In this document: positions 4,314 through 58,073 of the stretch, piece after piece | Position numbering within the stretch: the stretch's first letter is position 1 | Layout: each line of letters starts with the position of its first letter | NCBI GenBank assembly: GCA_016744775.1 | Contig: JADGDS010000001.1 | Coordinates: forward strand, 660,290 to 724,289 | Source of the DNA: Candidatus Marithrix sp. | Lineage (GTDB): Bacteria; Pseudomonadota; Gammaproteobacteria; Beggiatoales; Beggiatoaceae | Direction: 5' to 3' | Length of the DNA stretch: 64,000 bases | The notes under the pieces: model-generated | Database searches by the model: none | What the model saw: only the letters and a program-made list of their open reading frames with translations | Told to the model about the DNA's origin: nothing | Made by a program: the position numbers and the translations under genes

Positions 4314-4321
4314 ATTAAAGC

Positions 4322-13880: not shown

Positions 13881-14239
13881 TTCAACGTAATATTGATTAT
13901 GCAGAAATTCAGCGTAAACCAGAATTATTTCCCTTAATACGTTATTTAGTTGACACTATTCCTGAGCAACATTACCTAATTTTAGGAAGTGCATCACGAG
14001 ATTTAATTCGGCAAAGTTCAGAAACTCTTGCTGGTAGAATTTCTTACTATACCCTGTTAGGTTTGAGAACAATGGATATTAATTCTGACCAAATAGAACA
14101 ATTATGGTTCACAGGAGGCTTACCTTCTTCATTTTTAGCCGCAGATGATGCTATAAGTTATCAATGGCGCGAAGATTACATTAGAACCTTTCTGGAACGG
14201 GATATTCCAGCAGAGACTTACAGGCTATTTTATTTATAA
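13874..14239 (+). pseudogene. internal fragment of a COG1373-type AAA ATPase (DUF4143 family)
   Basis: The 121 aa (LILGSASRDLI...LAGRI...WFTGGLPSSF...YIRTFLERDI) match the middle of the family represented intact at 58074-59387. Walker A and the C-terminal domain are missing. Confidence 0.6.
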
Positions 14240-16405: not shown

Positions 16406-16648
16406 CTAATGTGAGTTTTGTATAAAATTTTGTAATACAAATGCTATTTGAGTATGTTTTAACTGAAGAGATTGTTTCACAGCTATTTGTGCTTGATCAA
16501 TTTTATTGTTTATTAATAGCTTAATAGCTTGATTACAAAGATATGCGGCTTGAGATTCAATTGTTAGCAACCTAGATAAATCAGTGCCACAACGATTACA
16601 GATAGAATTGTCTTTGATACATGCCTTACAAATTGGACATCGTTCCAT
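16406..16648 (-). CDS. zinc-ribbon protein with a helical tail
   Basis: 80 aa with CPICKAC...CNRCG (CxxC-N9-CxxC). Its start overlaps the Hsp70 stop by 1 nt. Confidence 0.55.
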   Translation of the reverse strand: MERCPICKACIKDNSICNRCGTDLSRLLTIESQAAYLCNQAIKLLINNKIDQAQIAVKQSLQLKHTQIAFVLQNFIQNSH

Positions 16649-18330: not shown

Positions 18331-18893
18331 ATTTTATTAACTTTAACTTCTGCAAGACGTAAAATTTCATTTTCCCACATGAAACCTTTACGTAATTCTC
18401 CTGTAACAATAGCATTATCTATTGTTGTTTGTTTATCTACTTCAACTGCTCGCATCAAATGTGGATCAAGAATTTTATTTAACACATCTATAGGCAATAC
18501 TTTATGCTTAGCCAATTGCTGCTCAAAGCGTCGTAATGTCATTGCTTGACCTTCTTTTATACTTTCTATAAGCGCAAATTCTCGTTTATAAAACCATTTC
18601 CAAAATGAAGGTTTATAATTATTTAAACTAAGCATAGCTGCATGTAAACGATCATAAACTTCTAAGAAATCTAATAAGAGATGTCGTATCAATTCACGAT
18701 CTTGATTATTATCCTTGAACATATCCAAAGCTTTTTTGACTTGACGCGATTCTAATTTTACTTCATTACGTAATGCCGCTAATTCAGTAAATAAGGCAAA
18801 TAAATCTGTTGTATTTGTATCCTCAATTTCATCAACAGTTTGTAAATAAGTTTCAAATTGTGTAAGCAGTTCTACTTTTTTACTATCATCCAT
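18327..18893 (-). CDS. GrpE-like nucleotide exchange factor
   Basis: 188 aa. A coiled N-terminus is followed by a GrpE-type C-terminus (LDPHLMRAVE...VTGELRKGFMWENEILRLAEVKV). It overlaps the Hsp70 start by 4 nt. Confidence 0.65.
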   Translation of the reverse strand: MDDSKKVELLTQFETYLQTVDEIEDTNTTDLFALFTELAALRNEVKLESRQVKKALDMFKDNNQDRELIRHLLLDFLEVYDRLHAAMLSLNNYKPSFWKWFYKREFALIESIKEGQAMTLRRFEQQLAKHKVLPIDVLNKILDPHLMRAVEVDKQTTIDNAIVTGELRKGFMWENEILRLAEVKVNKI

Positions 18894-23459: not shown

Positions 23460-23828
23460 ATGACTTCAATGCAACCATATTTATTACGTGCTGTACATGA
23501 ATGGATTACTGATAATGATTTTACAGCATATATATTAGTGAATGCGGATTACGAGGGCTGTGAAGTACCTCGTGAATATGTTGATAATGGTAATATTATT
23601 TTAAATATTTCCACAACAGCGGTAGAAAATTTAGTATTAGATAATGATTCGGTGGATTTCAATGCTAGATTTTCAGGGCAACAAATGAATGTATCTATTC
23701 CGATACCAGCAGTTTTAGCAATTTATGCACAAGAAAATGGCAAAGGTATGTCATTTCAAGCTGAGCCTGAAGAAAAGAAGGAAGTATCTCCACCGCCAAA
23801 AAAACCAACACTTACATTGGTTGAATAA
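23460..23828 (+). CDS. sspB: ClpXP adaptor / stringent starvation protein B
   Basis: The N-terminus MQPYLLRAVHEWITDN matches the SspB family. The tail is acidic/Pro-rich. Confidence 0.8.
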   Translation: MTSMQPYLLRAVHEWITDNDFTAYILVNADYEGCEVPREYVDNGNIILNISTTAVENLVLDNDSVDFNARFSGQQMNVSIPIPAVLAIYAQENGKGMSFQAEPEEKKEVSPPPKKPTLTLVE

Positions 23829-24126
23829 AACCGGGCATCTCCAACATTTCTAAGGAGATGCCACGCATCAACACCCTTCCCGTCTGACGCTGATTATTAC
23901 CATCGTCAAATTCAAATTGATATAGTCTTTGTATTATTAATTTACCATTATTATTACGTTTTAAACCCATTCGTACTAATGCAATAGTATCATCTAATAA
24001 TTGTAGTTTCAATTCTCTACAGGTTTGTTTACAAATAAGTTTTGCCCTTTCACGAGATTTTAATGTGTCAAGCCAAAACCATGTTATAATACTGATTAAT
24101 AATAGTAATATTATTGTTGTTATCAT
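23812..24126 (-). CDS. DUF3301 family membrane protein
   Basis: 104 aa with an N-terminal TM segment, then WFWLDTLKSRERA...LQLLDDTIAL...YQFEF, as in DUF3301. Confidence 0.65.
   Translation of the reverse strand: MITTIILLLLISIITWFWLDTLKSRERAKLICKQTCRELKLQLLDDTIALVRMGLKRNNNGKLIIQRLYQFEFDDGNNQRQTGRVLMRGISLEMLEMPGFIQPM
24020..24126. repeat. direct repeat copy A (5' end of the DUF3301 gene)
   Basis: 24024-24085 matches 25341-25402 with 1 mismatch in 62 nt. Weaker similarity continues to the start codon. Confidence 0.85.
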
Positions 24127-24221: not shown

Positions 24222-25124
24222 ATTTTTAAAAACCTTTCAATTATTATATTTTTAGCCGCTGTGATTAGTGGTTGTAATGATGATGATGGTGCTGGTGATT
24301 CGCCGGTTATTGATTTAATAAAATCTCAATCAGAGAAAAATTCACAGAAAATAGCTGATTTACAAGTTCAGTTATCTGAGCAATTAGAAAAAATTCAAAC
24401 AAATACTTTTGTTGCTGGTAAAGTCTTTCGCGATAAGTTAAAGGATGGTAGCTTTGCTCCAGAGATGGTTATGATTGCTGGTGGTTCTTTTAGAATGGGT
24501 GATATTCAAGGTGGTGGCAGGGATAATGAACAGGCAGTGCATTATGTTTTGGTTGATAGGTTTGCTATGGGGAAATATGAAGTTACCTTTGCTGAATATG
24601 ATAAGTTTGCTGAAGCTACTGGTAGAGAAAAGCCTAGTGATAGTGGTTGGGGGCGCGGTAATCGTCCAGTAATTAATGTTTCTTGGAATGATGCTACTGC
24701 CTATACAAAATGGCTTAGTGATCAAACTGGTAAGCAATATCGTTTGCCTACTGAAGCTGAGTGGGAATATGCAGCTAGAGCTGGTACGGATACTAAGTAT
24801 TGGTGGGGTAATGAGATTGATGGCAGTAAAGCAAATTATAACCAGAATCTTGGTAAAACTTCTTCAGTGGGAAATTATAAAGCTAATAAATTTGGTTTAT
24901 ATGATACTTCAGGAAATGTATGGGAATGGACATGTTCTGAATTTGAAGATAAATATAATGGTAAAGAAAAACAATGTGTTACGAATGCAAGCAATTTATC
25001 CTTTCGTGGCGGCTCGTGGAACAGCGGCGCGAGGGTTGTGCGCTCGGCTAACCGCTACTGGAACACGCCGACTGACCGCAGCCTCTACGTGGGCTTTCGG
25101 GTGTTAAGACTCGTAACCCTTTAA
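24222..25124 (+). CDS. lipoprotein with a formylglycine-generating-enzyme / C-type-lectin fold (SUMF1-like) domain; candidate DGR target
   Basis: FGE-sulfatase family motifs (MVMIAGGSFRMG, INVSWNDA, RLPTEAEWEYAAR, GNVWEWT, RGGSW...GFRV). The track start is GTG 24261, which would cut a lipoprotein signal. The in-frame upstream sequence after AAGGAG reads (ATT)FKNLSIIIFLAAVISGC. Confidence 0.75.
   Translation: MFKNLSIIIFLAAVISGCNDDDGAGDSPVIDLIKSQSEKNSQKIADLQVQLSEQLEKIQTNTFVAGKVFRDKLKDGSFAPEMVMIAGGSFRMGDIQGGGRDNEQAVHYVLVDRFAMGKYEVTFAEYDKFAEATGREKPSDSGWGRGNRPVINVSWNDATAYTKWLSDQTGKQYRLPTEAEWEYAARAGTDTKYWWGNEIDGSKANYNQNLGKTSSVGNYKANKFGLYDTSGNVWEWTCSEFEDKYNGKEKQCVTNASNLSFRGGSWNSGARVVRSANRYWNTPTDRSLYVGFRVLRLVTL
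25005..25103 (+). other. candidate DGR variable region (VR) at the gene 3' end
   Basis: By hand count about 67/99 nt are G+C and about 14/99 are A, against AT-rich flanks. It encodes RGGSWNSGARVVRSANRYWNTPTDRSLYVGFRV, and the variable-position codons are mostly NNC. Confidence 0.55.
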
Positions 25125-25166
25125 ACTTTATCACTTTTACCATTTTTTTTGAGTATTTATGGAATT

Positions 25167-25306
25167 TGGAGTTCAAAGCGGAGCTTTGTTTTTGTGGATA
25201 GGGGTTTATAGCTATATACAACAACTACAGGGATTGCACCGCAGGGATAAATATTCTTAACTAACAAGAAAATCCCTGTTAAAATGCAATCCCTGTAGTT
25301 TTTTTT
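25167..25306 (+). mobile_element. ~140-nt MITE-like / small-RNA-like repeat, copy 1
   Basis: More than 90% identical by eye to 38316-38452. It contains a family-2 hairpin, TTGTGG-N15-TATATA, then a 27-bp-arm hairpin (CTACAGGGATTGCA...TGCAATCCCTGTAG) followed by a T-run. Confidence 0.7.
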
Positions 25307-25336
25307 CTACACGTTCGGCATTACGTTCTTGTTATA

Positions 25337-25440
25337 CAGCTTTGTTTACAAATAAGTTTTGCCCTTTCACGATATTTTAATGTGTCAAGCCAAAACCATG
25401 TTCCAAGGTTTATTATTAACAATAATAACTGAAATGAATT
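25337..25440 (-). pseudogene. orphan duplicate of the DUF3301 gene 5' end (direct repeat copy B)
   Basis: The reverse strand reads ..LLLLIINLGTWFWLDTLKYRERAKLICKQS, against the intact gene's LLLLISIITWFWLDTLKSRERAKLICKQT. There is no in-frame ATG and similarity ends abruptly. Confidence 0.8.
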
Positions 25441-25482
25441 ATTATATAGTTTTTTTCATCTTTTATAAAAGGAATATTCTTC

Positions 25483-25998
25483 ATGAAAACCAAAATATAT
25501 TTAGTCAGCAGTATAGTATTAGGTTTTACAATAAGTGTTGCAGCAGTTGCTGAACCTAAAACTAAACGTTTATTAGAAGCTTTTGATGTTAATCAAGATG
25601 GTTCTATGACAACATCTGAAGTGAAACAAGTTTTAACTAAACGTTTCAAAGCTAATGATAGCGATGGTGATGGATTTTTAAATTTCAATGAAACCGTAGC
25701 TGCTTATGAACAAGCAAAACAAGAACGTGCAGTAAAACGTTTTAATAAGATTGATCAAAATGGAGATGGTACAGTAACACTAAATGAATTTTTAACTACA
25801 GTCAAAAAATATTCTGCTTATAAACAGAAACTTATTCAACATAGATTTACAAAAAAAGATAAAAATAATGATGAATTAGTTTCATTAACTGAATTTACTA
25901 AGCCATTACCATTTTTTGATCATTTTGATTTTAATAAAGATAATGTAATTTCCTTAGAAGAAATTACAAGTAAGTTTAATCATCATCATCATAAGTAA
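25483..25998 (+). CDS. secreted EF-hand calcium-binding protein
   Basis: Signal peptide and five DxDxDG-type loops (DVNQDGSMTTSE, DSDGDGFLNFNE, DQNGDGTVTLNE, DKNNDELVSLTE, DFNKDNVISLEE). AGGA lies 8 nt upstream of the ATG. Confidence 0.8.
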   Translation: MKTKIYLVSSIVLGFTISVAAVAEPKTKRLLEAFDVNQDGSMTTSEVKQVLTKRFKANDSDGDGFLNFNETVAAYEQAKQERAVKRFNKIDQNGDGTVTLNEFLTTVKKYSAYKQKLIQHRFTKKDKNNDELVSLTEFTKPLPFFDHFDFNKDNVISLEEITSKFNHHHHK

Positions 25999-26037
25999 GT
26001 TCCTTAGCCCCTCCAGCCCCATTTAGGGGCTTAAATT

Positions 26038-26060
26038 GCAAAGCTCCGCTTTGTACTCCA
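26038..26060. repeat. family-2 half element (GCAAAGCTCCGCTTTGTACTCCA)
   Basis: Shares GCTTTGTACTCCAG with 27667-27681. Confidence 0.6.
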
Positions 26061-26107
26061 GATTTGTTGTTATCTAACATCCTCTCCAAAATAAAGAAGT
26101 TTTAATC

Positions 26108-27643
26108 ATGAAAAAATTTTTCAACACTGCTGGAGCTTGTGTGCCAGAAAAGCATTATATGCTAACTAACGATGTTAGTAATATGAAAAAATTGATTGAC
26201 AATGAACGTTATTTCATTCTACACGCTCCACGTCAAACTGGTAAAACCACCTTAATGTTGCAATTGATGGAACAAATCAACAAAGAAGATAAATATATTG
26301 CACTATATGTAAATGTAGAAGTAGCACAAGCGTGGCGTAATAATGTTATCGAAGTTAATAATACAATTGTTAATCAGTTCCGTATTCAAACTGAAATATC
26401 TTTACCAAAACAATATCAACCATCAGCGGCTTGTTTTGAAAATATAGGTAATGAATTTTCATTATTCTTAATACGATGGTGTTTAGAACTTTCAAAACCC
26501 TTAATAGTATTTATGGATGAAGTAGATGCACTAATTGGTGATGGCTTAATATCAGTATTACGCCAATTACGTAGCGGCTATACTCAACGCCCACGCGCCT
26601 TTCCTCATGCTTTATGTATGATCGGATTACGAGATATTCGAGATTATAGAATCTATTCCGACTCATCACAGCGTTACATAGTTGGAGGTTCAGCTTTCAA
26701 CATAAAAGAAAAATCAATTCGCCTACAAGATTTTACCTATGAACAAGTAAAAGAATTATACGCACAACACACAGCGGCAACTGGTCAAAATTTTACTCAC
26801 CATGCACTACAAAGAGTTTTTGAACTAACCCAAGGGCAACCGTGGCTAGTAAATGCTTTGGCTAGAGAATTATGTTTTGATGATTATGCAATACCGTGGG
26901 AACAAACAATTACTAAAGAAGACGTAAATAATGCCGCAGAAATTTTAATCAAACGTCGCGATGTACATTTAGATCAACTAGCAGACAAATTGACAGAACC
27001 AAGAGTAGAACGGGTTATTCAATCAATATTAATTGGCGAAGAAGTAGAAAATACCAATCTGAATGAAGATAAACAATACTTAATTGACTTAGGATTAATT
27101 CGTTCCGGAGAACAAGGCTTAGAAATAGCCAATCCAATTTATCGCGAAGTCATTCCAAGAGAATTAACAGCTTACCGTCAAGATATGTTAGGACAAAATC
27201 CTCAATGGTATGTAAAAGAAGACGGAAAACTAGATATTCAGAAAGTATTAGAAGCTTATATAGAATTTTATAAAGAGCATAGCGAACTAGTAACCAAACG
27301 AAAAACCTATACTGAAGCAGCACATCACTTATTATTTATGGCATGGCTACAAAGAATAGTAAATGGAGGCGGCTATATTAGTCGAGAATACGCCGCTGGT
27401 TTAGGGCGAGTAGATTTATGTATTGATTTTGCTGATGAAAGATTTGCTTTTGAATTAAAACTAAGCGGCAAAAAAGCCTTAACAGAAGGAATAAAACAAC
27501 TAATAAACTACTTAGATAGACTAAGCTTAGACAGCGGCTGGTTGATAATTTTTAATCGTAAGACAGTTGAAGACTGGGATAAAGTAGGTGAAAGACAAAT
27601 TGTGGAAGAAAAAGGCAAAAGGATTGAGGTTATTTGGTTATAA
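26108..27643 (+). CDS. AAA+ ATPase with a C-terminal PD-(D/E)XK-type nuclease motif
   Basis: Walker A (HAPRQTGKTT), Walker B (VFMDEVD) and a C-terminal GRVDLCIDF...FAFELKL (D...ExK) motif. Confidence 0.7.
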   Translation: MKKFFNTAGACVPEKHYMLTNDVSNMKKLIDNERYFILHAPRQTGKTTLMLQLMEQINKEDKYIALYVNVEVAQAWRNNVIEVNNTIVNQFRIQTEISLPKQYQPSAACFENIGNEFSLFLIRWCLELSKPLIVFMDEVDALIGDGLISVLRQLRSGYTQRPRAFPHALCMIGLRDIRDYRIYSDSSQRYIVGGSAFNIKEKSIRLQDFTYEQVKELYAQHTAATGQNFTHHALQRVFELTQGQPWLVNALARELCFDDYAIPWEQTITKEDVNNAAEILIKRRDVHLDQLADKLTEPRVERVIQSILIGEEVENTNLNEDKQYLIDLGLIRSGEQGLEIANPIYREVIPRELTAYRQDMLGQNPQWYVKEDGKLDIQKVLEAYIEFYKEHSELVTKRKTYTEAAHHLLFMAWLQRIVNGGGYISREYAAGLGRVDLCIDFADERFAFELKLSGKKALTEGIKQLINYLDRLSLDSGWLIIFNRKTVEDWDKVGERQIVEEKGKRIEVIWL

Positions 27644-27688: not shown

Positions 27689-28612
27689 CTAATATTTAAC
27701 CTGTTGATCTGCATGATAAGACGAACGAACCATTGGACCACTTGCAACATTTTTAAAACCCATTTTTTCCCCTTCAATTCTCAACTGTTCAAATTCTTCT
27801 GGAGTAACATAACGTTGCACCGCTAAATGATGAGGGCTAGGTTGTAAATATTGCCCTAAAGTTAGCATTTCACAATCATGAGCGCGTAAATCTTTCATTA
27901 CCTCTAAAACTTCATCAATTTCTTCACCTAAACCTAACATCAAACCAGACTTAGTCGGAACATCAGGATGTTCAGCCTTAAAACGTTTTAACAATTGCAA
28001 TGACCACTTATAATCAGCACCCGGGCGAGCTTGCTTATATAAACGTGGCACAGTTTCTAAATTATGATTTAAAACATCAGGCGGTGCTTGATGAAATATA
28101 TCCAAAGCAACATCCATACGCCCACGAAAATCAGGAACTAAAATTTCAATTTTAGTATTTGCTGATTGCTCACGTATTGTCTGAATACAGGCGACAAAAT
28201 GTGCAGAACCACCATCGCGCAAATCATCACGATCAACTGAAGTAATCACAACATAATTTAATTTCATATCAGCAATAGTTTTAGCTAAATTATGTGGTTC
28301 CTCAGTATCTAAAGGCTCCGGGCGACCATGTGCAACATCACAAAAAGGACAACGTCGCGTACAAATATCGCCCATAATCATAAAAGTTGCAGTACCACCC
28401 GAAAAACATTCATTTAAATTTGGACAAGCCGCCTCTTCACATACAGTATGTAAATTATTTGCTCGCAACTTCTCTTTTAAACCATTAACAGTATTACCTG
28501 TAGGTACTTTCATACGTATCCATTTAGGCTTACGTAATGGAGTCGTAGTAGGTATAACCTTAATAGGAATACGAGCAGTTTTATCAGCACCACGCTGTTT
28601 AATAGGAGTCAT
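27689..28612 (-). CDS. lipA: lipoyl synthase
   Basis: Radical-SAM cluster CTRRCPFC plus the auxiliary cluster [12 protein letters not shown]. 307 aa. Confidence 0.9.
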
Positions 28613-28614
28613 AA

Positions 28615-28977
28615 TTAAAATTTATTTATAGGTCCTCGATAAATAACCATAGTAGTTCCAACAGATTGTTTTTTATTGTCATAGCCTACTAAACGAATAT
28701 GATCAGTAGGGTGAATACGATGACATGTTTTGGCTTCAGCTAAGATATTATCTACCTTTGACTCACCAAACATTGGTAATTTCCAGAAATACCAATAATG
28801 ACCATCAACATTATTGGGTTCAGTATGTTCAATAGCTGGCACCCAACCTTTATTGATTATATATTTAATCTGTAACTCTATATGCTCATCACTCATTTCA
28901 GGTAAATATGAAAAAATTTCAAATTTTCTACTATTTGGATCATTTAAACCTGAATGATAATCTTGCATTGCATTCAT
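28615..28977 (-). CDS. cbbS: RuBisCO small subunit
   Basis: [22 protein letters not shown]...GWVPAIEH...[11 protein letters not shown] matches form IA CbbS. The start was moved to the internal Met; the track start is 28998. Confidence 0.85.
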
Positions 28978-28984
28978 ATTATTT

Positions 28985-30367
28985 TTACTCAAATTCATGC
29001 CATGTTTTCATAGCAATTTTAAGTTCAGGGCTATGTTGAGCAGCATCCCTTAAAATATCCTTGCTTTGTTCTTCTAAATTAATGCCTTGATTGCGTGCAT
29101 CTGTACAAGCTTCAAGGGCAATGCGATTAGCAGCAGCTCCTGCTGCGTTACCCCAAGGATGCCCAAGCGTAGCTCCACCAAATAAAAATACAGCATCATC
29201 ACCAAAAATTGACACCAGTGCTGGCATATGCCAAACATGAATACCACCCGATGCAACAGGAAATATCCCCGGTGTTAATCCCCAATCCTGATCAAACATT
29301 ATGCCATGATCAGGATTTTCCTTTACATATGATTCACGTAATATATCAATGCAACCTAAAGTAGAATTGCGTTCAGATTCTAATCTTTCAACAACTGTAC
29401 CAGTATGTAAATGATCACCGCCCGATAAACGTAATATCTTACTTAATACGCGAGAATGCACACCATGAAATGGATGGCGATCAATAACCGCGTGCATAGT
29501 ACGTTGAATATGTAACAACATACCATTCTCACGACACCAATTAGCCAATCCTGTATTGGCACAAATACCACCAATAATATAATCATGCATAATAATAGGC
29601 GCACCTAATTCTTTAGCAAACTCAGCGCGTTTATACATTTCTTCAGGAGTAGCAGCGGTTACATTTAACAAATGACCTTTACGTTCACCAGTTTCAGCCT
29701 CAGCTTTTTTTACAGCCTCCATTACAAATTCAAAACGATCTCGCCAACGTATAATAGCTTGAGAATGCACACTTTCATCATCTTTAGTAAAATCTAAACC
29801 GCCTCGTAAACACTCATAAACGGCACGACCATAATTTTTAGCTGATAAACCTAATTTAGGTTTAATTGGACTACCAAGTAGGCTACGACCATACTTATTT
29901 AATTTATCGCGTTCTACCAACATACCATTAGGTGGACCACCGCAAGTCATGACATAAGATATTGGAAATCTTATATCTTCTAAACGTAATGCCCTTAATA
30001 TATTAAGGTTAAACACACTTCCTAATAATGAAGTAAAAACATTTACAATAGAACCTTCCTCAAATAAATCAATTGGATATGCAATATAAGCATAAAAAAT
30101 ATTTTCATAACCCGGTATATCTTTTATATGGTAGGCACGAGCTTTATAACGTTCTAAATCAATAAATAAATCAGTCCATACATGAGTCCAAGTACCAGTG
30201 GAAGATTCTGCTGCTACAGTAGCCGCTGCTTCTTCATAGCATACAGGATTTTTTGTGGTAATTTTAAAACATGCCAGAAAATCTGTTTCTTTTGGCGTAT
30301 AATCTGGTTCCCAATAAGTATTGCGATATTGTTGTACACCAGCTTGATAACTTTTACTTGACACCAA
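28985..30367 (-). CDS. cbbL: form I RuBisCO large subunit with atypical active-site residues and a short C-terminus
   Basis: Strong form IA similarity ([70 protein letters not shown]). The start is TTG 30367 or GTG 30364, after AAGGAGAG. Confidence 0.85.
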
Positions 30368-30403
30368 TCTCTCCTTATTTTATAACTAATAACAGGTTTT
30401 ACT

Positions 30404-31330
30404 ATGCACATGACTTTACGTCAATTAACTTTATTTAAAGCGGTAGCACAACATTTAAGTTTCACTCGCGCCGCTGCTGAATTATGTTTAACTCAACCCG
30501 CTGTTTCAATACAAATCAAACAGTTAGAAGGTCATATGGGTATGCCTTTATTTGAACAAATAGGCAAACGCATATTTTTAACTGATGCAGGGCGTGAATT
30601 ATACGCTGCTAGCGATGATATTTTTAATCGTATTGAAAATTTGCAAACATCTCTTAATGAATTACAGGGTTCAATTAAAGGGCAATTAAAATTATCTGTA
30701 GTAACAACAGCGACATATTTTATACCATCTATATTTAAAAGTTTTTTAAAACAGTATCCAGAAGTTAGTCTTCGCCTCACAGTTAGAAATAGAAATAATG
30801 TTTTAGAACGGCTAACGAATAATAAAGAAGATTTAGTGATAATGGGGCAAGTGCCTGAACAATTGCATGTTACAGCTAAACCTTTTTTAGACAATCCCTT
30901 AGTTGTATTAGCACCACCACAACATGCTCTTATAAATAAATCTAATATACCATTAGAAAGATTAGCAAAAGAGACTATGTTAGTTCGAGAAGTAGGATCT
31001 GGAACACGTCTAGCGATGGAACGTTGTTTTGCCTCACATAATTTAGAATTAGCACAAACAATGGAATTAGGCAGTAGTGAGGCAATTAAACAAGGTGTGA
31101 TAGCAGGCTTAGGAATTTCTGTATTATCAAAACATGCCGCTAATTTAGAATTAGCAAGCGGAATGATAAAATTATTAGATGTAGAAGATTTTCCTTTGGA
31201 ACGTAATTGGTATGTAGCACATTTAGCAGATAAAGAAATGTCTTTAGTAGCCCGTACTTTCTTAGAATTTTTATTAAAAAGCGGTTCAGAAGTAGTCAAA
31301 GAAGTTTCAAAACAATTTAATAAAAGCTAA
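30404..31330 (+). CDS. cbbR: LysR-family regulator, divergent from cbbL
   Basis: N-terminal wHTH (LRQLTLFKAVAQHLSFTRAAAELCLTQPAVSIQIKQLE) plus a LysR substrate-binding domain, in the classical divergent position. Confidence 0.85.
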   Translation: MHMTLRQLTLFKAVAQHLSFTRAAAELCLTQPAVSIQIKQLEGHMGMPLFEQIGKRIFLTDAGRELYAASDDIFNRIENLQTSLNELQGSIKGQLKLSVVTTATYFIPSIFKSFLKQYPEVSLRLTVRNRNNVLERLTNNKEDLVIMGQVPEQLHVTAKPFLDNPLVVLAPPQHALINKSNIPLERLAKETMLVREVGSGTRLAMERCFASHNLELAQTMELGSSEAIKQGVIAGLGISVLSKHAANLELASGMIKLLDVEDFPLERNWYVAHLADKEMSLVARTFLEFLLKSGSEVVKEVSKQFNKS

Positions 31331-31332
31331 AA

Positions 31333-31354
31333 AAAATCCCCTTATGGGGATTTT
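31333..31354 (+). terminator. AAAATCCCCTTATGGGGATTTT hairpin
   Basis: Perfect stem flanked by A-run and T-run, directly after the cbbR stop. Confidence 0.7.
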
Positions 31355-31367
31355 CCCTTCATTAATT

Positions 31368-32033
31368 ATGATTTTATTCAATCAAGGCAATTCGCTACAA
31401 ATTCGTCAAATTCAACCAAAAGATGCTTCAATATTAACTGAAGCTTATAAAAACCCTGAATTCATGCGCCTTTACGGCACCACTATCACACCGCTAACCG
31501 AAGAACAATTATACGAACGTCAAAATTACAGCATCGAAGACTTAGGCTTTATAGAATATTTAATAATACACAAACAACATGGAGCAATTGGCATAGCAAT
31601 ATTAACTGAATATGCCGCTATTCATAAACGCGCCCAATTCATGATAGGTTTATTTGAAACAGAACACCGTTCAATTGGCTATGGCACCGAAGCGACATTA
31701 TTAGTACTAGATTTAGCATTTAACGCCTATGGTTTACACAAGATTTTTTCATATGTTTATGCTTACAATGAATTTTCTCATAAAAATATGCTGAAATTTG
31801 GTTTTGAACATGAAGGAATATTAAAAGATCATCATTTCCTAATAGAAGAAGAAAAATTTATAAATCTATATGTAAATGCTATGACAGAAACAAGATTTAG
31901 AAACTATGAAAAAATTAGCCGCTATTCTCGACGACTAATTGGACGAGATGTTACTCAAAAACCAATCAAACTAAGCCCAAAAAAAATATCATCAAACAAT
32001 CATAAAAATTTTCTTAATAGTTTATATTATTAA
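31368..32033 (+). CDS. GNAT-family N-acetyltransferase with a basic C-terminal tail (paralogue 1)
   Basis: RimJ/L-like GNAT core (IGYGTEATLLVLDLAFN..LHKIFSYVYAYNE...FGFEHEG). Paralogous to 34804-35514. The start was moved past the terminator; the track start is 31344. Confidence 0.7.
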   Translation: MILFNQGNSLQIRQIQPKDASILTEAYKNPEFMRLYGTTITPLTEEQLYERQNYSIEDLGFIEYLIIHKQHGAIGIAILTEYAAIHKRAQFMIGLFETEHRSIGYGTEATLLVLDLAFNAYGLHKIFSYVYAYNEFSHKNMLKFGFEHEGILKDHHFLIEEEKFINLYVNAMTETRFRNYEKISRYSRRLIGRDVTQKPIKLSPKKISSNNHKNFLNSLYY

Positions 32034-32100
32034 AATAATAAAAAACTAGAAATTTTAAAAAATATGTATTAATATATATACTGAAGTCAATGAAACATAT

Positions 32101-32910
32101 ATGAGGGTAAAAAAAATGGGAAGTCAAATGAAGAAAAAAACCATACAAAATGCCGTAGCTAGCACATTTCTGATAGCTACAAGTCCAGCTTGGGCAAAAG
32201 GCAGTGGTGCTGGTACCTCTGAAGGCGGCAAAAGCCAATTAGGTGTAAATCAATTGTCTTTAGAAGAATTTCCGGGGCGCAATGCGACAGTTTGTACAGA
32301 TCCAAATGATAATGCAGGTAAAGGTGGAGCCAATGCTATACCTAATGATCTTGACATTGCTGTTGATCCTTTTAAAGATAATTACATAGGTGTGGAATTT
32401 GTAGTACGAGATATTATAGCGCATAATACAGATTACATATTGTATCTAGTATATAGTCCTCAATTATCACCTACTCCGCAAATGCCTACTCCTAAATCAA
32501 CAAATAAATTAGGTGTTGATCTTTCTGGTTTAGAAATAGTGGCAATTATGGATATTCCAGCTCAAACACTCCTAGCTCAAGGCTCTACTCGTTTAGGGGC
32601 TGCTGATCCAAGACCCCATAGCGCAGTAAGTTTCTCCTTTAACTTCGATACAAGCACTTTACCCGGGTTTGTACGCGATAATGCAAAAGTCTATTTCCAA
32701 GCTGCCTTAATAAGTAAAAGCAATTTTAATGCTGGAAGATTTAGTGAAATGATTTTATCTGAAGTTGATACTGTCGGATTTGTGGCTAATAATTGTGCTG
32801 CTGGTAGTAACAGTATAAATGCTGGTGATGATGATGGACTATCTAAATCTGGTAGTATAGTACCTGATAATGTTCAAGTTCAGCCGGGTAGTGGTACTGG
32901 TGGCAAATAG
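32101..32910 (+). CDS. secreted protein of unknown family (X1), homologous to 35520-36548
   Basis: Signal peptide (MKKKTIQNAVASTFLIATSPAWA; the start is probably 32128). It shares the block FNFDTSTL...YFQAALISKSNFNAGRFSEMILSEVDTVGFVANNC with X2. Confidence 0.6.
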   Translation: MRVKKMGSQMKKKTIQNAVASTFLIATSPAWAKGSGAGTSEGGKSQLGVNQLSLEEFPGRNATVCTDPNDNAGKGGANAIPNDLDIAVDPFKDNYIGVEFVVRDIIAHNTDYILYLVYSPQLSPTPQMPTPKSTNKLGVDLSGLEIVAIMDIPAQTLLAQGSTRLGAADPRPHSAVSFSFNFDTSTLPGFVRDNAKVYFQAALISKSNFNAGRFSEMILSEVDTVGFVANNCAAGSNSINAGDDDGLSKSGSIVPDNVQVQPGSGTGGK

Positions 32911-32945
32911 AATAACTTGCAAACCACATTAGTTTGAATAAGTCA

Positions 32946-32978
32946 AGACCTGTCAGGTTTTAAAAACCTGACAGGTCT
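32946..32978. terminator. family-1 palindrome AGACCTGTCAGGTTTT-A-AAAACCTGACAGGTCT
   Basis: Perfect arms, in inverted orientation relative to the copy at 13660. Confidence 0.7.
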
Positions 32979-33010
32979 GATAATATCATTAATCCTCTTA
33001 AGGAAGTAAC

Positions 33011-34738
33011 ATGTACAAAAAATTCCTAACTTTATTTATCCTATTAATATTCACGTCACCGATATACGCTATTCCAACCATCAACCTTGATAAACCCACT
33101 GCTAGTTGCAGCCAAGCGGATAATCATTTCATTTTAACTGGTACTGCAACCGGAGTTGGTGGTGGTCAAGGTATTGATATAATATTAGTTTTAGATGATT
33201 CTGGTAGTTTAGGTCATACTGATCCTGCTGCTACACGTTTTAATGCTCTTACAGAACTATTAAATAGTTTTGGTCCAGATGCTAATTTGAGATTAGGTTT
33301 AGCATTTTTTACATCAACTGCTACATTAAATGTACCTTTAGCTAAATTAGATACTGTTATACCAGCAATTAATCAAGAAATACTAGATCATCAAAAGCCC
33401 GGTGGTGGTACAGCAATTGGTGAAGGCATTAGAATAGCTGATGCAGAACTAAAAGCTAATGGTCGTGCTGGTGCTACACATGTGATAATGGTATTTACTG
33501 ATGGTATGGATGGAGGTTCAGATCCAATTGGAGCTGCTACAACGGCTTCTGCTCATGCTATCGTTAATGTTGTTGGCTTAGGTCCAGAAGCATTTAATCT
33601 ACCTGAAAACCAAGCGATTGCAGATGCAGGTAAAGGCACACTAATGCCTGCAACTGATCCCCAAAAATTAGCTGCATTATTCCGAGATGCTAGACAAGTT
33701 GGTATTCAAAGTGTTGAAGTTAAAAACCTAACAACTAATACTCCAGCTAATATTACAATGAGTACCGGTATTTTTACCGCACCAATTGATTTAGTAGAAG
33801 GTCAAAATACTATAGAAATTACTGCGGTTGATACTGATAATCAAAGTGAATCCACTTCAATTGACATTGAAAGAATCACAGAAGGTTGTGGAACTTGCCC
33901 CGGTAGCCCTTGTCTTGATAAAAAAGAACCTACTGTTGAAAAAGGACAATGTTCTGGTCGTAAAATCAGAACACGCCCACAAGTAGTTATGGCTGGTTTT
34001 GATCCACCAGTAATTGGTAAAAATACCAAAACCTTTAATGTCATAGCAACAGTACGTGAAGGTAGTAATCCTATTGCTAATGTTACCGTTGATCCGATTC
34101 AATCTAACGGCATGAATTCATTAGGTTTAGGTTGGCCAATGAGAAAAGTTGGCAAATGGGAAAATGGAGATCAAGTATGGATAATTAGCCTAGAAAGCAA
34201 TATTCTACCTAATGATGTACCTATAGCCAATTTGTTTGGTACCAAGGCTGGTCAATATGTAATTACCATAGCCGATAATGCTCGTAATCACCATTCATTT
34301 CCAAATTTAGAATTTGGTAATAATGCTGAAATGCCACTAAACGATAACTTAGATAAAACATCAGCAATTTACACCGCAAAAGGACCAACAGCTCCAATAC
34401 CAATGGTATTAGCCGCAGGTTTTGATCCAACACTAGTAGATTTTGGTGATAATTGTTATAAAGTAAAAGCTATGATTCGTCCCGGTGCTGCCGCTATCAA
34501 ATCAGTAACATGGCAACAAAATAATGGTGAACGTTCTTTCCCATTAACAGAAGAACAAGATCTCAGTAATGGTGATAAATTATATACATATATAAGAACC
34601 TTTCCACGAGGAAGCTTATCAACTCAAGTATTAACCAACTTATTTGGTTCAGGAAAGATACAATCAGTGATTGAAGTTATTGATGCTAATAATAATTCAT
34701 ATCAATTTCCAGTGCTTATGAGAAGTAGTAAATTTTAA
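33011..34738 (+). CDS. secreted von Willebrand factor A domain protein with two C-terminal Ig-like repeats
   Basis: Signal peptide, MIDAS motif (LDDSGSLG ... T ... FTDG), and two homologous ~115-aa repeats beginning MAGFDPPVIG / LAAGFDPTLVD. Confidence 0.8.
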   Translation: MYKKFLTLFILLIFTSPIYAIPTINLDKPTASCSQADNHFILTGTATGVGGGQGIDIILVLDDSGSLGHTDPAATRFNALTELLNSFGPDANLRLGLAFFTSTATLNVPLAKLDTVIPAINQEILDHQKPGGGTAIGEGIRIADAELKANGRAGATHVIMVFTDGMDGGSDPIGAATTASAHAIVNVVGLGPEAFNLPENQAIADAGKGTLMPATDPQKLAALFRDARQVGIQSVEVKNLTTNTPANITMSTGIFTAPIDLVEGQNTIEITAVDTDNQSESTSIDIERITEGCGTCPGSPCLDKKEPTVEKGQCSGRKIRTRPQVVMAGFDPPVIGKNTKTFNVIATVREGSNPIANVTVDPIQSNGMNSLGLGWPMRKVGKWENGDQVWIISLESNILPNDVPIANLFGTKAGQYVITIADNARNHHSFPNLEFGNNAEMPLNDNLDKTSAIYTAKGPTAPIPMVLAAGFDPTLVDFGDNCYKVKAMIRPGAAAIKSVTWQQNNGERSFPLTEEQDLSNGDKLYTYIRTFPRGSLSTQVLTNLFGSGKIQSVIEVIDANNNSYQFPVLMRSSKF

Positions 34739-34744
34739 TAATTA

Positions 34745-34782
34745 AATCCCCCCTAACCCCCCTTTTTCAAAGGGGGGATTTC
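34745..34782. terminator. family-3 poly-C/G hairpin
   Basis: AATCCCCCCTAACCCCCCTTTTTTCAAAGGGGGGATT, directly after the vWA gene stop. Confidence 0.65.
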
Positions 34783-34803
34783 AACAAAGAGTAAAAAAAC
34801 CCC

Positions 34804-35514
34804 ATGATTATCTCCAACCAAGGAAAATCATTACACCTACGTCAAACCGAAGCCAAAGACGCTCCAATCTTATTAAAAGCCTACGACGATGAATCCTTTA
34901 TCCGCCTCTATCGTTCTAACAATGTCACTCCAAAACCAGAACAACTAGTTGAAGGTTTAAAAAAACGAACTGAACTTCATCCAACTCAATTGGGTTATTT
35001 AGAATTTATGATAGAGCATAAGGAACATGGTGCTATTGGTGTCGCAGCATTTGGTGATTATGCGCCCTATCATAAACGAGCAGAATTTCTAATTGGTTTA
35101 TTTCAAGAAAAAAATCATTCAGTAGGTTATGGTACTGAAGCCACACTTTTAATGCTTGATTTAGCCTTTAACGTCTATAATTTAAATAAGATTTATACAT
35201 ATGTATATGAATATAATGAATCTTCAGAAGATCAAACGGTTAAATTTGGTTTTAAAAAGGAAGGTTATTTAGAATCTCATCATTATTCAACACGCGAAAA
35301 AGGCTTTGTTGATTTATATATCAATGGTTTAACACTAGCAAACTTTCGCAAACATGAAAAACTTCGTCGCTTTTCTAAACGGTTAATAGGGCGAGATATT
35401 ACTCAAGCTCCTAGGCAAATAAATGTAAATGAAGATGTTTCTCCTGTAGAGAATGAAGAACAAATGAAAAAACGTTTTTTAGAAGGCATACGATCAATGG
35501 CAACACAAGGATAA
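34804..35514 (+). CDS. GNAT-family N-acetyltransferase with a basic C-terminal tail (paralogue 2)
   Basis: Collinear with 31368-32033 (e.g. VGYGTEATLLMLDLAFNVYNLNKIYTYVYEYNE; RFSKRLIGRDITQAP vs RYSRRLIGRDVTQKP). Confidence 0.75.
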   Translation: MIISNQGKSLHLRQTEAKDAPILLKAYDDESFIRLYRSNNVTPKPEQLVEGLKKRTELHPTQLGYLEFMIEHKEHGAIGVAAFGDYAPYHKRAEFLIGLFQEKNHSVGYGTEATLLMLDLAFNVYNLNKIYTYVYEYNESSEDQTVKFGFKKEGYLESHHYSTREKGFVDLYINGLTLANFRKHEKLRRFSKRLIGRDITQAPRQINVNEDVSPVENEEQMKKRFLEGIRSMATQG

Positions 35515-35519
35515 TTACA

Positions 35520-36548
35520 ATGTTAAAAAAAGCAATCTTAATCTCAACAATCAGTATTTATAGTCAATTTAGTGCCGCCGCTATCTGTTTAGATGAATTA
35601 CAAACAGATAACGCACAAATTTGCACTCCAATAACGACAAAAAATAAATGCACAATGCCAAACCAACTAACTTTGGCGATTAACTCAAAAGTTCCTGCCA
35701 TCAAAATAGGATTTGCTACCAGTCAAATTCCAGCAGATGGTAAAGATTACAAATTATTTCTATTAGTTGAACGTACCAAACTATTAACTTCACTGTTAAA
35801 ACTCAAAAAACCAGAAACAACTAACACATTTGAAGATCACTTATGGAAATTGAAAAAAATCTTGATCACAAAATTAGAAATTCCAGCAACTCGACTATTA
35901 CGAAATGCACGAACTCGTATAGCGGCAACTCCAGCAATTGCTAATTTAACCAAAATACTACCTTTTAATTTTGATACAGCAACACTGTTGAAACAGAAGC
36001 AACTATCTATTCAAGCGGCTTTAATCACAACCACAGATTTCAAAGCGGCAAAATGGGATAAGATCAAGTTTTCTGAAATTGACACACTGAAATTTATAAC
36101 AAAATCATGTCCAAATAAAGTCAGAAAAAAAAAACTAATTACAACTAAACTAAAGCCAGAACAAGTACAGGAATTTACCGATAGAAAAAAGCTAGCAACA
36201 GAAATGTTTAGATCAGTATTCACTCACTTAGAAAACGGAAATGTAACTGTTATTATTGACAAAATCAATAACAAATGGCAATTAGTACCAGTTGATATAA
36301 CAAAATATCCAATGAATATTTACTGCCTAGCAAAAAAAAATTGTATAGGTGGAATATATGCAAGCATACAGAATCACAACAAAAAAGGAGAAATATTATA
36401 TAGAATACACAAAGGCAAAAACATGACAATAAGCTGCGCATGGAAAGAATTCTATTCTGAACCATTTAAAACCATGTCAGAACAACTTAAAAAAGATGCT
36501 CTGGAACGGGCGTGGCATTGGGGAAAAGTTTGTTTTAAAGCTTCTTAA
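35520..36548 (+). CDS. secreted protein of unknown family (X2) with an extra Cys-containing C-terminal domain
   Basis: Signal peptide (MLKKAILISTISIYSQFSAAA). The homologous block is FNFDTATL...IQAALITTTDFKAAKWDKIKFSEIDTLKFITKSC. Confidence 0.6.
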   Translation: MLKKAILISTISIYSQFSAAAICLDELQTDNAQICTPITTKNKCTMPNQLTLAINSKVPAIKIGFATSQIPADGKDYKLFLLVERTKLLTSLLKLKKPETTNTFEDHLWKLKKILITKLEIPATRLLRNARTRIAATPAIANLTKILPFNFDTATLLKQKQLSIQAALITTTDFKAAKWDKIKFSEIDTLKFITKSCPNKVRKKKLITTKLKPEQVQEFTDRKKLATEMFRSVFTHLENGNVTVIIDKINNKWQLVPVDITKYPMNIYCLAKKNCIGGIYASIQNHNKKGEILYRIHKGKNMTISCAWKEFYSEPFKTMSEQLKKDALERAWHWGKVCFKAS

Positions 36549-50279: not shown

Positions 50280-50280
50280 A

Positions 50281-58067: not shown

Positions 58068-58073
58068 AATTAT

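Follow-up and report, generated by a model that had tools for sequence, protein, structure and literature searches.

The gene pair cbbL*-cbbS* of Candidatus Marithrix, which lies in the 64,000-nt stretch of DNA analysed here (the window), probably represents a functional paralogue that arose from the resident Beggiatoaceae cbbR-cbbL-cbbS(-cbbQ) locus of form IAq and that, judging from its sequence, would no longer be a RuBP carboxylase. The evidence is good that it is a paralogue and that the carboxylase apparatus has been lost; what the complex (L*S*) catalyses is a guess. The large-subunit gene cbbL* spans 28985..30367 on the minus strand and encodes 459 amino acids from a likely GTG start at 30364 (460 from a TTG at 30367), with a Shine-Dalgarno motif, AAGGAG, read 6 nt upstream of the GTG (30371..30376, minus strand). 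The product carries the Pfam domains RuBisCO_large_N (PF02788, 1.8e-37) and RuBisCO_large (PF00016, 2.6e-119), and passes the NCBIfam model of form I, NF003252, with 676.7 bits (cut-off 438). The models of form IV RLPs, on the other hand, stay far under their cut-offs (MtnW NF007095, 113.6 vs 409; OiaX NF042437, 113.1 vs 700; TIGR03332, 82.7 vs 513.6), and neighbour-joining trees place cbbL* on a long branch within form IA, so that it falls outside the form IV clade. Identity to canonical form IA is 75-76%, the nearest sequences being those of Beggiatoaceae IAq. This position, together with the adjoining RuBisCO_small domain, agrees with the original prediction of a form IA-like ORF followed by cbbS. 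Databases name such proteins "form I ribulose bisphosphate carboxylase large subunit" (e.g., WP_069472570.1, MCK5522850.1).

CbbL* aligns without a gap over 455 residues to RbcL proteins of solved structure, in the numbering of Halothiobacillus RbcL and at an offset of 6 to spinach RbcL (spinach = query + 6), whose numbering we use for active-site positions. An error of register in the first alignment is thereby ruled out, and the four substitutions claimed there, N123S, T173P, H294Q and K334R, are all present. The other 17 of 21 catalytic positions are kept: K175, K177, K201, D203 and E204, as had been predicted, and E60, T65, W66, R295, H298, H327, L335, S379, G380, G381, G403 and G404. In the minus-strand codons, AGT at 30017..30019 gives Ser123 in place of the canonical Asn, and AGT CCA at 29867..29872 gives Ser172-Pro173 in place of Cys-Thr, the CCA of T173P (29867-29869) standing two residues ahead of Lys175; N123S, C172S and T173P are fixed across the Marithrix clade. 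Gln294-Arg295-Thr296 (29498..29506, the region CAA-AGA/CGN-ACT) corresponds to the canonical His-Arg-Ala, with H294Q (CAA, 29504-29506) accompanied by A296T. The apex of loop 6 reads Glu333-Arg334-Leu335-Glu336-Ser337 (29375..29389) for Gly-Lys-Leu-Glu-Gly; here K334R (AGA, 29384-29386) is joined by G333E and G337S, and Arg334 is fixed clade-wide, while most relatives, and the sequencing run X8, have Gly at position 333. Finally, the protein ends ...KTWHEFE (TWHEFE and stop, 28985..29002) at spinach residue 466. Residues 467-476 are missing, and with them the canonical latch segment KFEFDTVDKLD and the C-terminal strand whose Asp473 latches over loop 6, as the original prediction had it.

K334 and N123 serve to position and polarise CO2, and H294 acts on O3 and in hydration and cleavage; K201, D203 and E204 are the carbamate and Mg2+ residues and Lys175 is the acid-base residue. 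CbbL* thus shares a trait of form IV, namely non-canonical carboxylation-specific residues with the carbamate lysine and metal ligands kept. Among about 158 ordinary form I loci none departs from the canonical residue at any of the 21 positions, and over 277 conserved columns these loci show 0-9 deviations, compared with 34-36 in cbbL*, which is far beyond chance. Furthermore, of the changes at columns with a conservation of 99% or more, 26 are found in all four compared clade members, and these cluster near the active site, with an enrichment of about 3-fold at 2-4 residues or less from its positions (P = 0.002-0.02). Three of the four replacements have been made at homologous positions of the Rhodospirillum rubrum enzyme, where K329R, N111S and H287Q (equivalent to K334R, N123S and H294Q) have a compiled vcMUT/vcWT of 0 and deep-mutational fitness values of 0.05, -0.04 and -0.01, respectively (0 being dead and 1 wild type), and mutation of I164, the equivalent of T173, leaves 1-6% (PMC11839469). 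The R. rubrum mutants, including I164T/N, are single laboratory changes in a form II enzyme that render it inactive or nearly so, whereas those of CbbL* are combined, natural and fixed in a form I enzyme, with many accompanying second-shell changes. These co-fixed changes could be compensatory.

The small-subunit gene cbbS* (28615..28974, minus strand) encodes 119 amino acids from an ATG at 28974, a start set by comparison with two related loci (L001 and L004; the mechanical ORF begins at 28998), and matches RuBisCO_small (PF00101, 1.8e-35). The lack of a small subunit, a trait of form IV, does not apply to this locus: cbbS* adjoins cbbL*, is strongly constrained and in some relatives is fused to it. 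One subclade has lost the cbbL* stop so that L continues in frame into S, and such natural fusions show that L* and S* work together. On the other side a LysR-family regulator (30404..31330, plus strand; Pfam HTH_1 and LysR_substrate) is divergently transcribed. Its best NCBIfam match is CbbR, at 260 bits and under the equivalog cut-off of 450; a CbbR-like gene also adjoins cbbL* in four further loci (L002, L004, L085 and L167), with dN/dS of 0.11-0.22. The spacer between cbbR and cbbL* measures 36-39 nt, against 222 nt in Thiomargarita (L018), and a promoter scan of this region gave nothing above chance. Two nt downstream of cbbS* lies lipA, a lipoyl synthase gene (27689..28612, minus strand; Pfam LIAS_N and Radical_SAM), which is probably co-transcribed with cbbS*. 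The adjacency is kept in the Marithrix clade only (synteny of L001, L002 and L004), and lipA occupies the spot of cbbQ in canonical IAq loci. In form IAq systems CbbL-CbbS is flanked by CbbR on the upstream side and by the CbbQ/CbbO activase on the downstream side. A tblastn search of the window and the Marithrix loci returned no CbbQ homologue, and in this respect the locus departs from form IAq; cbbQ is present in 68 of the 164 loci compared, Thiomargarita L018 included. Likewise, no prk, cbbM or carboxysome genes were found in the window or the Marithrix loci; the prk genes found elsewhere lie in loci of at least 49% GC (best match L088, 68% GC). The surroundings are those of an ordinary chromosome, with mur genes, hisS, bamB, trpBA, gcvTHP, petABC (cytochrome bc1), lpxL, lptF/G and lysA.

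Two sister lineages in Thiomargarita-like bacteria, likewise derived from form IA and accompanied by cbbS, have also lost Lys334 (Gln or Pro) and the tail. One, the P0043 clade (Thiomargarita sp. MCK5522850.1 and a partial sequence of Ca. Marithioploca araucensis), carries Q334, N381 (G381N) and S403 (G403S); the other, P0272, from a Thiomargarita sp. MAG (GCA_030635005.1), carries S173, R175 (K175R), K204 (E204K), P334 and Y379. All three lineages have A296T, G337x, W345x and R360H/Y in common and are monophyletic in 60 of 60 neighbour-joining bootstraps, a grouping that may reflect long-branch attraction. In the P0043 clade the gene order is always RNaseT-cbbL*-cbbS-cbbM, with the form II cbbM intact, and the neighbours of P0272 are LysR-...-DUF1015-NMT1. 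Selection on the sister-clade cbbL* is comparable with that on the adjoining form II gene (dN/dS 0.07-0.08 vs 0.07-0.13). The catalytic residues common to all three lineages are just K177, K201, D203, R295, H298 and H327; from these sequences, the want of a wider common set could mean that the role is non-catalytic or that the functions differ.

A second, canonical form IA cbbLS very probably resides in the same genome as cbbL*, since the two co-occur on separate contigs at equal depth. In three metagenomes the depth of the canonical contigs compared with those of the window was 100.5 vs 91.7 (X1), 429 vs 408 (X2) and 5.8-6.9 vs 5.4-7.0 (X3), that is, a ratio of about 1.0-1.1 across a 70-fold range, and the same canonical sequence tags recur in X6 and X8. 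L008 and L159 served as canonical reference loci. A second RuBisCO, which the original prediction had suggested looking for, is thus very probably present, and it is unlikely that cbbL* is the sole Marithrix RuBisCO and that autotrophy is in doubt. With the sister-clade cbbM as query we found no low-GC or Marithrix-labelled form II match, the nearest being two loci of 40-43% GC (L165 and L166). The published Marithrix genome paper inferred lithoautotrophy from "the large and small subunit". A RuBisCO activity of 2.48 +/- 1.76 nmol/min/mg has been measured in mats of these filaments from the field (PMC3873080); the activity of such lysates is low and assignable to neither enzyme.

Four other explanations have to be weighed. 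The chance that cbbL* stems from an error of sequencing or assembly, or is chimeric, is negligible, and nothing was found in favour of it. Identical contigs occur in X1 (depth 92) and X2 (about 400), and runs of other studies yield contigs 97-99% identical without indels and with the four codons unchanged. A single-filament genome (NZ_MCBX01000038.1), MAGs and JGI contigs as long as 1.84 Mb carry the same gene. The substitutions are thus borne out by independent assemblies, which refute sequencing error as their source. Early decay of the carboxylase in an intact ORF, one of the two readings put forward by the original prediction, is highly improbable as well. Redundancy would be plausible with a canonical copy probably in the genome, cbbL* evolves above the rate of canonical RbcL, and 35 formerly invariant positions vary within the clade. 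However, about 21 distinct sequences, which come from many sites and are 86-100% identical (the closest genome being Ca. Marithrix sp. Canyon 246), all have an uninterrupted ORF with the four changes and the truncation. Purifying selection on cbbL* (dN/dS 0.11-0.20, upper bootstrap limits at most 0.34) equals that on the adjoining lipA, petB, petC and sspB, essential neighbours, and on cbbS* it is tighter still (0.02-0.13). The 21 pocket positions are all invariant in the 21 clade sequences, compared with 78.7% of columns overall (P = 0.006), and synonymous codon changes have left new residues in place (e.g., Ser311 as TCT, TCA, TCG and TCC). The sister lineages are likewise intact and constrained. 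The low dN/dS and the fixed substitutions therefore largely refute decay. Most key changes run from AT to GC despite a composition of 33% GC; N to S, T to P, K to R, N205S, N207H and F311S all do so, with genomic GC3 at about 19%, and mutational pressure toward AT was rejected as their cause. Metatranscriptome contigs cover cbbS*/cbbL*.

That cbbL* is a working RuBP carboxylase, with about 20 other fixed changes compensating for those in the pocket and perhaps adapted to vent or seep water rich in CO2 and poor in O2, seems to us quite unlikely. The Mg2+/carbamate and phosphate-binding residues are all intact, Arg334 keeps the positive charge, and the gene has a small subunit, a CbbR-like regulator, a strong Shine-Dalgarno motif, purifying selection and transcription; moreover, a low RuBisCO activity is detectable in the filaments, and A296T corresponds to R. 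rubrum A289T, for which the mutational scan gave a higher apparent affinity for CO2 (PMC11839469). Against this stand the zero activity of each of the three R. rubrum mutants, the intolerance of ordinary form I loci to change at the 21 positions, the lack of the latch tail and of cbbQ, and sister lineages that are further gone (K334Q/P, E204K, K175R, G381N, G403S). With a canonical RuBisCO apparently in the same genomes, there is also no need for cbbL* to fix CO2. An alternative scenario, in which L*S* is a dead pseudoenzyme forming an L8S8-like particle that serves as a buffer or sensor of RuBP or other sugar phosphates, as a partner of RuBisCO or CbbR, or as scaffold or storage, is unlikely. 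In its favour, no complete catalytic set is common to the three lineages, and P0272 lacks a Mg2+ ligand (E204K) and Lys175; constraint is even over the whole protein, small subunit included, and a regulator or cbbM always adjoins. Furthermore, R. rubrum H287 mutants reportedly bind CABP more tightly than the wild type (Harpel and colleagues, 1998). Nevertheless, the Marithrix clade conserves its pocket better than other parts of the protein, with K175, K201, D203 and E204 in place, a pattern expected of catalysis or specific ligand binding rather than of a pure scaffold.

The reading we prefer, a paralogue of form IA with a function other than RuBP carboxylation, corresponds to the second option of the original prediction, a neofunctionalised form I enzyme. 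It fits the evidence and is strengthened by the sister lineages with other active-site losses and by the canonical RuBisCO that very probably coexists; the new function itself is so far a prediction, and some residual carboxylation may persist. In this context, L* would assemble with its small subunit, become carbamylated and bind Mg2+, and the pocket, under strong constraint and with both phosphate-binding sites kept, would bind a RuBP-like sugar bisphosphate. Lid closure and the addition of CO2 or O2 should be impossible. The complex might then catalyse proton transfer on the bound sugar phosphate, with enolisation as a first step to epimerisation, isomerisation or beta-elimination; it could, for instance, turn over xylulose-1,5-bisphosphate or other by-products of RuBisCO. 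Or it might bind the sugar phosphate tightly. The same 1998 work by Harpel and colleagues is said to have found that H287Q abolished detectable enolisation in R. rubrum, and this weakens the idea of proton transfer for the Marithrix clade. Expression would be under the CbbR-type regulator, and CO2 would be fixed by the canonical RuBisCO, that is, by the second form IA cbbLS in Marithrix and by form II in the sister clade. More tentatively, and against what we consider the better odds, the three lineages may constitute an unrecognised class of RuBisCO-like enzymes, recently derived from form IA, with a small subunit, non-carboxylating on RuBP-type sugar bisphosphates and accompanying the true RuBisCO of these giant sulfur bacteria under the control of CbbR; the epimerisation or removal of misfire products, again xylulose-1,5-bisphosphate, is a guess at its reaction.

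If true, this would be a case of neofunctionalisation caught inside form I, with the partnership of L and S kept and sometimes turned into a fusion. The canonical and derived pair, at 72-76% identity, would offer a tractable system in which to ask which residues make RuBisCO a carboxylase, and if L*S* acts on by-products of RuBisCO or on sugar bisphosphates, Calvin-cycle maintenance would gain a new component. Since cbbL* passes the NCBI family cut-off, it can mislead RuBisCO phylogenies, kinetic surveys and the use of cbbL to infer autotrophy; the RuBisCO copy of the Marithrix genome paper and the source of the low measured activity need re-checking. In the literature searched, whose coverage is incomplete, we found no earlier description of these substitutions.

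Two known systems invite comparison. The form IAq enzymes of Thiomargarita sp. (L018) and Ca. Parabeggiatoa (L008 and L012) share with the cbbL* locus the fold, the domain architecture, a similar small subunit and the divergent LysR/CbbR-type gene. They differ from it in that cbbL* has 4 of the 21 catalytic positions replaced and some 13-22 more changes at otherwise invariant columns, the Asp473 latch deleted, and lipA in the place of cbbQ, the order in Thiomargarita being cbbR-cbbL-cbbS-cbbQ. The form IV RLPs (the DK-MTP-1-P enolase MtnW/YkrW, the MTRu-1-P isomerase "DeepYkr", OiaX and the Chlorobaculum RLP) embody the same concept as CbbL*. As Tabita and colleagues reportedly set out in 2007/2008, they keep the carbamylated lysine and the metal site without the carboxylation residues, and the known ones use enolisation-type chemistry on phosphosugars. 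To our knowledge, all non-carboxylating RuBisCO homologues described so far are form IV proteins of ancient origin that have no small subunit. These RLPs form separate clades about 25-35% identical to form I, whereas CbbL* branches inside form IA and is accompanied by cbbS.

The divergent large-subunit gene of the window (28985..30367, minus strand) encodes 459/460 amino acids with the Pfam domains RuBisCO_large_N and RuBisCO_large. It is directly followed by the gene of a 119-residue small subunit (28615..28974) and, after a gap of 2 nt, by lipA (27689..28612). The start codon of cbbL is probably the GTG at 30364, with AAGGAG 6 nt before it, since relatives begin at the same site and a 99.8% identical database protein has 459 aa. 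A LysR-family gene, with CbbR as best NCBIfam match, lies divergently at 30404..31330. The spacer between the two (30365-30403) measures only 36-39 nt, against 222 nt and 94 nt in the Thiomargarita loci L018 and L167, so both promoters must sit within the adjoining coding regions, as is likewise the case in the related locus L004. The nearest genome to this stretch of approximately 33% GC is that of Candidatus Marithrix sp. Canyon 246 (Beggiatoaceae), with an RbcL 94% identical and the same local gene order. The order cbbR-cbbL-cbbS-lipA is kept in the loci of the clade, two of which (L001 and L002) continue with DUF3301, sspB and cytochrome bc1 genes. In these two lipA directly precedes the DUF3301 gene (23812-24126 in the window), while the window has an insertion at 24261-27643, with an AAA_35-type ATPase (26108-27643), an EF-hand-like secreted protein (25483-25998) and an FGE-sulfatase/PvdO-like protein (24261-25124).

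Other features of the window deserve mention. At 31344-36548 a two-gene module is present twice, a GNAT acetyltransferase and then a secreted protein without family match; the acetyltransferases (31344-32033 and 34804-35514) are clearly paralogous, the secreted proteins lie at 32101-32910 and 35520-36548, and a VWA-domain protein (33011-34738) separates the two copies. At 16648-18893 lies a short DnaK/HscA-like Hsp70 of 560 aa that scores under the equivalog cut-offs. Upstream of it, on the same strand, a protein of 188 aa weakly resembles GrpE, and the atypical chaperone pair adjoins a beta-propeller protein (14230-16350). Defence-like genes are dispersed among housekeeping genes (3273-5512, 49134-50393 and 56853-59387), namely a HEPN RiboL-PSP and a GmrSD-N protein, two Schlafen AlbA_2/HATPase_c_4 proteins and an AAA_14/DUF4143 ATPase.

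Comparison by phmmer with solved structures gave alignments without gaps over 455-457 residues against form IA enzymes, in which Halothiobacillus numbering applies directly and spinach numbering is offset by +6. The original prediction of a form IA-like reading frame ahead of cbbS, with Asn123 replaced by Ser, Thr173 by Pro, His294 by Gln and Lys334 by Arg, is confirmed at each position. The reported absence of the tail is also real: the protein ends at spinach position 466, and thus the Asp473-bearing strand is missing. Lys175, Lys177, Lys201, Asp203 and Glu204 are intact as had been claimed, and 17 of the 21 canonical active-site residues are kept overall. Further changes are C172S, A296T, G333E, G337S and D338E, together with N205S, N207H, F311S, Q401L and G405A. 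The protein also passes the NCBI RuBisCO large-subunit model (676.7 bits vs a cut-off of 438). Relative to 113-114 canonical form I proteins, it deviates at 36 of the 277 columns with at least 97% conservation, where ordinary sequences deviate at 0-9; genome and metagenome collections supplied approximately 158 ordinary form I loci, and each of them matches the consensus at the full set of 21 active-site positions.

The possibility of sequencing errors at these codons is excluded by an identical contig at depth 92 in one run and approximately 400 in another, as well as by contigs 97-99% identical to the window gene, free of indels, in the runs of other studies. Database clusters yielded a clade of about 21 distinct sequences that share 86-100% identity with the window protein; their sources are NCBI MAGs, JGI contigs (the longest 1.84 Mb), ENA and Logan. 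Ser123, Pro173, Gln294, Arg334 and the short tail are found in every one, including that of Canyon 246 (WP_069472570.1), annotated as 'form I ribulose bisphosphate carboxylase large subunit'. In one subclade (approximately 87% identity) the stop codon is gone and the large subunit is joined in frame to the small one via about 15 residues, the linker being the old intergenic region read through (..TWHQIEISKNHTNGMQDYHSG..). These natural fusions comprise five proteins of 585-586 aa from several sources, on contigs of up to 54 kb (P0005, at 389-2146 of locus L003; P0127, P0128, P0132 and P0138).

Within the clade, pairwise Nei-Gojobori dN/dS values, which are approximations, are 0.11-0.20 for cbbL (bootstrap upper limits at most 0.34), 0.02-0.13 for cbbS, 0.11-0.22 for cbbR, 0.08-0.12 for lipA, 0.05-0.12 for petB, 0.14-0.16 for petC and 0.12-0.17 for sspB; cbbL is thus constrained like its housekeeping neighbours. 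Yang-Nielsen estimates (0.06-0.08 versus 0.02-0.05 for canonical pairs) indicate somewhat less constraint than in canonical RbcL, but clearly no drift. Of two alternatives originally put forward, early decay in an intact frame can therefore be excluded, given this constraint and the presence of the substitutions in all of the approximately 21 sequences, while a neofunctionalised form I enzyme stands as the best-supported reading. At 236 columns at least 99% conserved in the canonical set, the clade is unchanged at 184, has a fixed new residue at 17 and is polymorphic at 35. No variation occurs in the clade at any of the 21 pocket positions, against an invariant share of 78.7% over all columns (hypergeometric P = 0.006). 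Twenty-six columns at least 99% conserved elsewhere are altered in the window, Canyon 246, P0002 and P0005 alike, and around pocket positions (within 2-4 residues) these changes show a roughly three-fold excess (Fisher P = 0.002-0.02). The key codon changes run mostly from AT to GC (AAY to AGT, ACC to CCA, AAR to AGA) in a gene with a GC3 of approximately 19%, and new residues survive synonymous change (Ser311 is encoded by TCT, TCA, TCG and TCC), so mutational bias does not explain them.

When Logan contigs of the window-bearing runs were aligned at 80% likeness to canonical cbbL (L159:9990-11900 and, from Ca. Parabeggiatoa, L008:10001-12000), contigs distinct from the window gene were recovered, in which ...AKHSPELAIA leads into a canonical tail and the cbbS is a different one. 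Their depths were 100.5 in run X1 (window contigs 91.7), 429, 378 and 391 in X2 (340-408), and 6.9 and 5.8 in X3 (5.4-7.0); the same sequence tags occur in X6 and X8, from other studies, at depths resembling those of Marithrix contigs. With depth varying 70-fold, a ratio that stays at 1.0-1.1 favours a single genome, though short of proof, and this canonical form IA cbbLS is probably a second RuBisCO locus in the same organism. The encoded peptides correspond to P0118 and P0271 (472 aa, 21/21 catalytic residues, full tail; 72% identity to the window protein), whose contigs (L176 and L177) have 30-35% GC and the order HAD hydrolase-dus-cbbL-cbbS. Both copies appear in a vent metatranscriptome, the divergent contig at a depth of about 13 and a canonical-type tail fragment at about 59, although the depth of contigs reflects expression poorly and DNA may have been carried over. 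Canonical form IA large subunits are also annotated in Enterovibrio and Grimontia hollisae (Vibrionaceae; P0061, P0065, P0084 and P0087), genera that, to our knowledge, are not usually counted as autotrophs.

Two sister lineages are similarly altered. The P0043 clade comprises seven sequences, among them MCK5522850.1 ('Thiomargarita sp.') and an incomplete protein from Ca. Marithioploca araucensis; here the tail is truncated and the residues are Gln334 (K334Q), Asn381 (G381N) and Ser403 (G403S). The genes are always arranged RNase T-cbbL-cbbS-cbbM (L084, 7946-11265; L171, L172, L174, L175), cbbM being an intact form II RuBisCO, and the divergent cbbL (dN/dS 0.074-0.081) and the adjoining cbbM (0.07-0.13) are under equal purifying selection. 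P0272, on seven contigs of a Thiomargarita sp. MAG, is altered more radically still: it has T173S, K175R, E204K (a Mg2+ ligand), K334P, S379Y and a truncated tail, in the order LysR-cbbL-cbbS-DUF1015-NMT1, the last an NMT1-like binding protein (L167, 2815-4570; L168-L170).

Lys334, at the apex of loop 6, and Asn123 place and polarise CO2 and stabilise the intermediate formed on carboxylation; His294 has its role at O3 and in hydration and cleavage, and the C-terminal strand with Asp473 is the latch that closes loop 6. The protein keeps Lys175 (acid-base), Lys177, the carbamate Lys201, the metal ligands D203/E204 and the two phosphate sites. What it has lost is specific to adding the gas and closing the lid, and what it has kept serves activation, sugar-bisphosphate binding and proton abstraction. 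A compiled literature table and a deep mutational scan of the form II R. rubrum enzyme (scan fitness 0 for dead, 1 for wild type) give a mutant carboxylation rate relative to wild type (vcMUT/vcWT) of 0 for the equivalents of K334R (K329R, fitness 0.05), N123S (N111S, -0.04) and H294Q (H287Q, -0.01), the 'dead' level having been set from all K329 and H287 mutations (PMC11839469). At I164, equivalent to T173, I164T leaves 6% and I164N 1% (PMC11839469). The Thr296 codon (29498-29500) represents a change common to all three divergent lineages; its R. rubrum equivalent, A289T, is among the few substitutions raising apparent CO2 affinity in vivo in that 2025 scan (PMC11839469).

Judging from sequence, the best-supported reading of cbbL-cbbS is a neofunctionalised paralogue with CO2 addition lost. 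Controlled by a CbbR-type regulator, the large subunit would still assemble with its small subunit and bind Mg2+ and a sugar bisphosphate in the conserved pocket, and the complex would no longer add CO2; residual carboxylation through compensated residues is possible but disfavoured. Since the machinery for proton abstraction has survived along with both phosphate sites, and the P0043 sister clade is physically tied to cbbM, we favour proton-transfer chemistry on a RuBP-like ligand, which might be epimerisation, isomerisation or elimination and might, for example, serve to handle RuBisCO misfire products. Nevertheless, H287Q reportedly abolishes enolisation in the R. rubrum enzyme and the three lineages have no common catalytic core; both points weaken the proton-transfer idea and make a ligand-binding pseudoenzyme a serious rival.

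The Marithrix genome paper reported 'a form I RubisCO' and inferred lithoautotrophy from it (PMC4971068). A single activity measurement exists, 2.48 +/- 1.76 nmol CO2/min/mg for mats taken from the field (n = 2); a compromised sample showed no activity (PMC3873080). Neither that paper nor the other genome papers on large sulfur bacteria that were consulted make mention of the atypical residues, and a targeted search found no description of these substitutions; within this literature, of incomplete coverage, we regard the feature as undescribed.

Regarding origin, neighbour-joining trees, in which long-branch attraction is possible, unite the three divergent lineages within form IA in 60/60 bootstraps. 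They have in common A296T, the loss of Lys334 and of the tail, and changes at G337, W345 and R360, and are nearest by identity (76-82%) to Beggiatoaceae IAq enzymes. The origin, we infer, is the resident IAq locus in an ancestral member of the family, a locus that diverged and shed the lid apparatus and the activase. The window and the Marithrix loci, all searched for cbbQ, are without this gene, in contrast to the canonical Thiomargarita IAq locus, where the order is cbbR-cbbL-cbbS-cbbQ.
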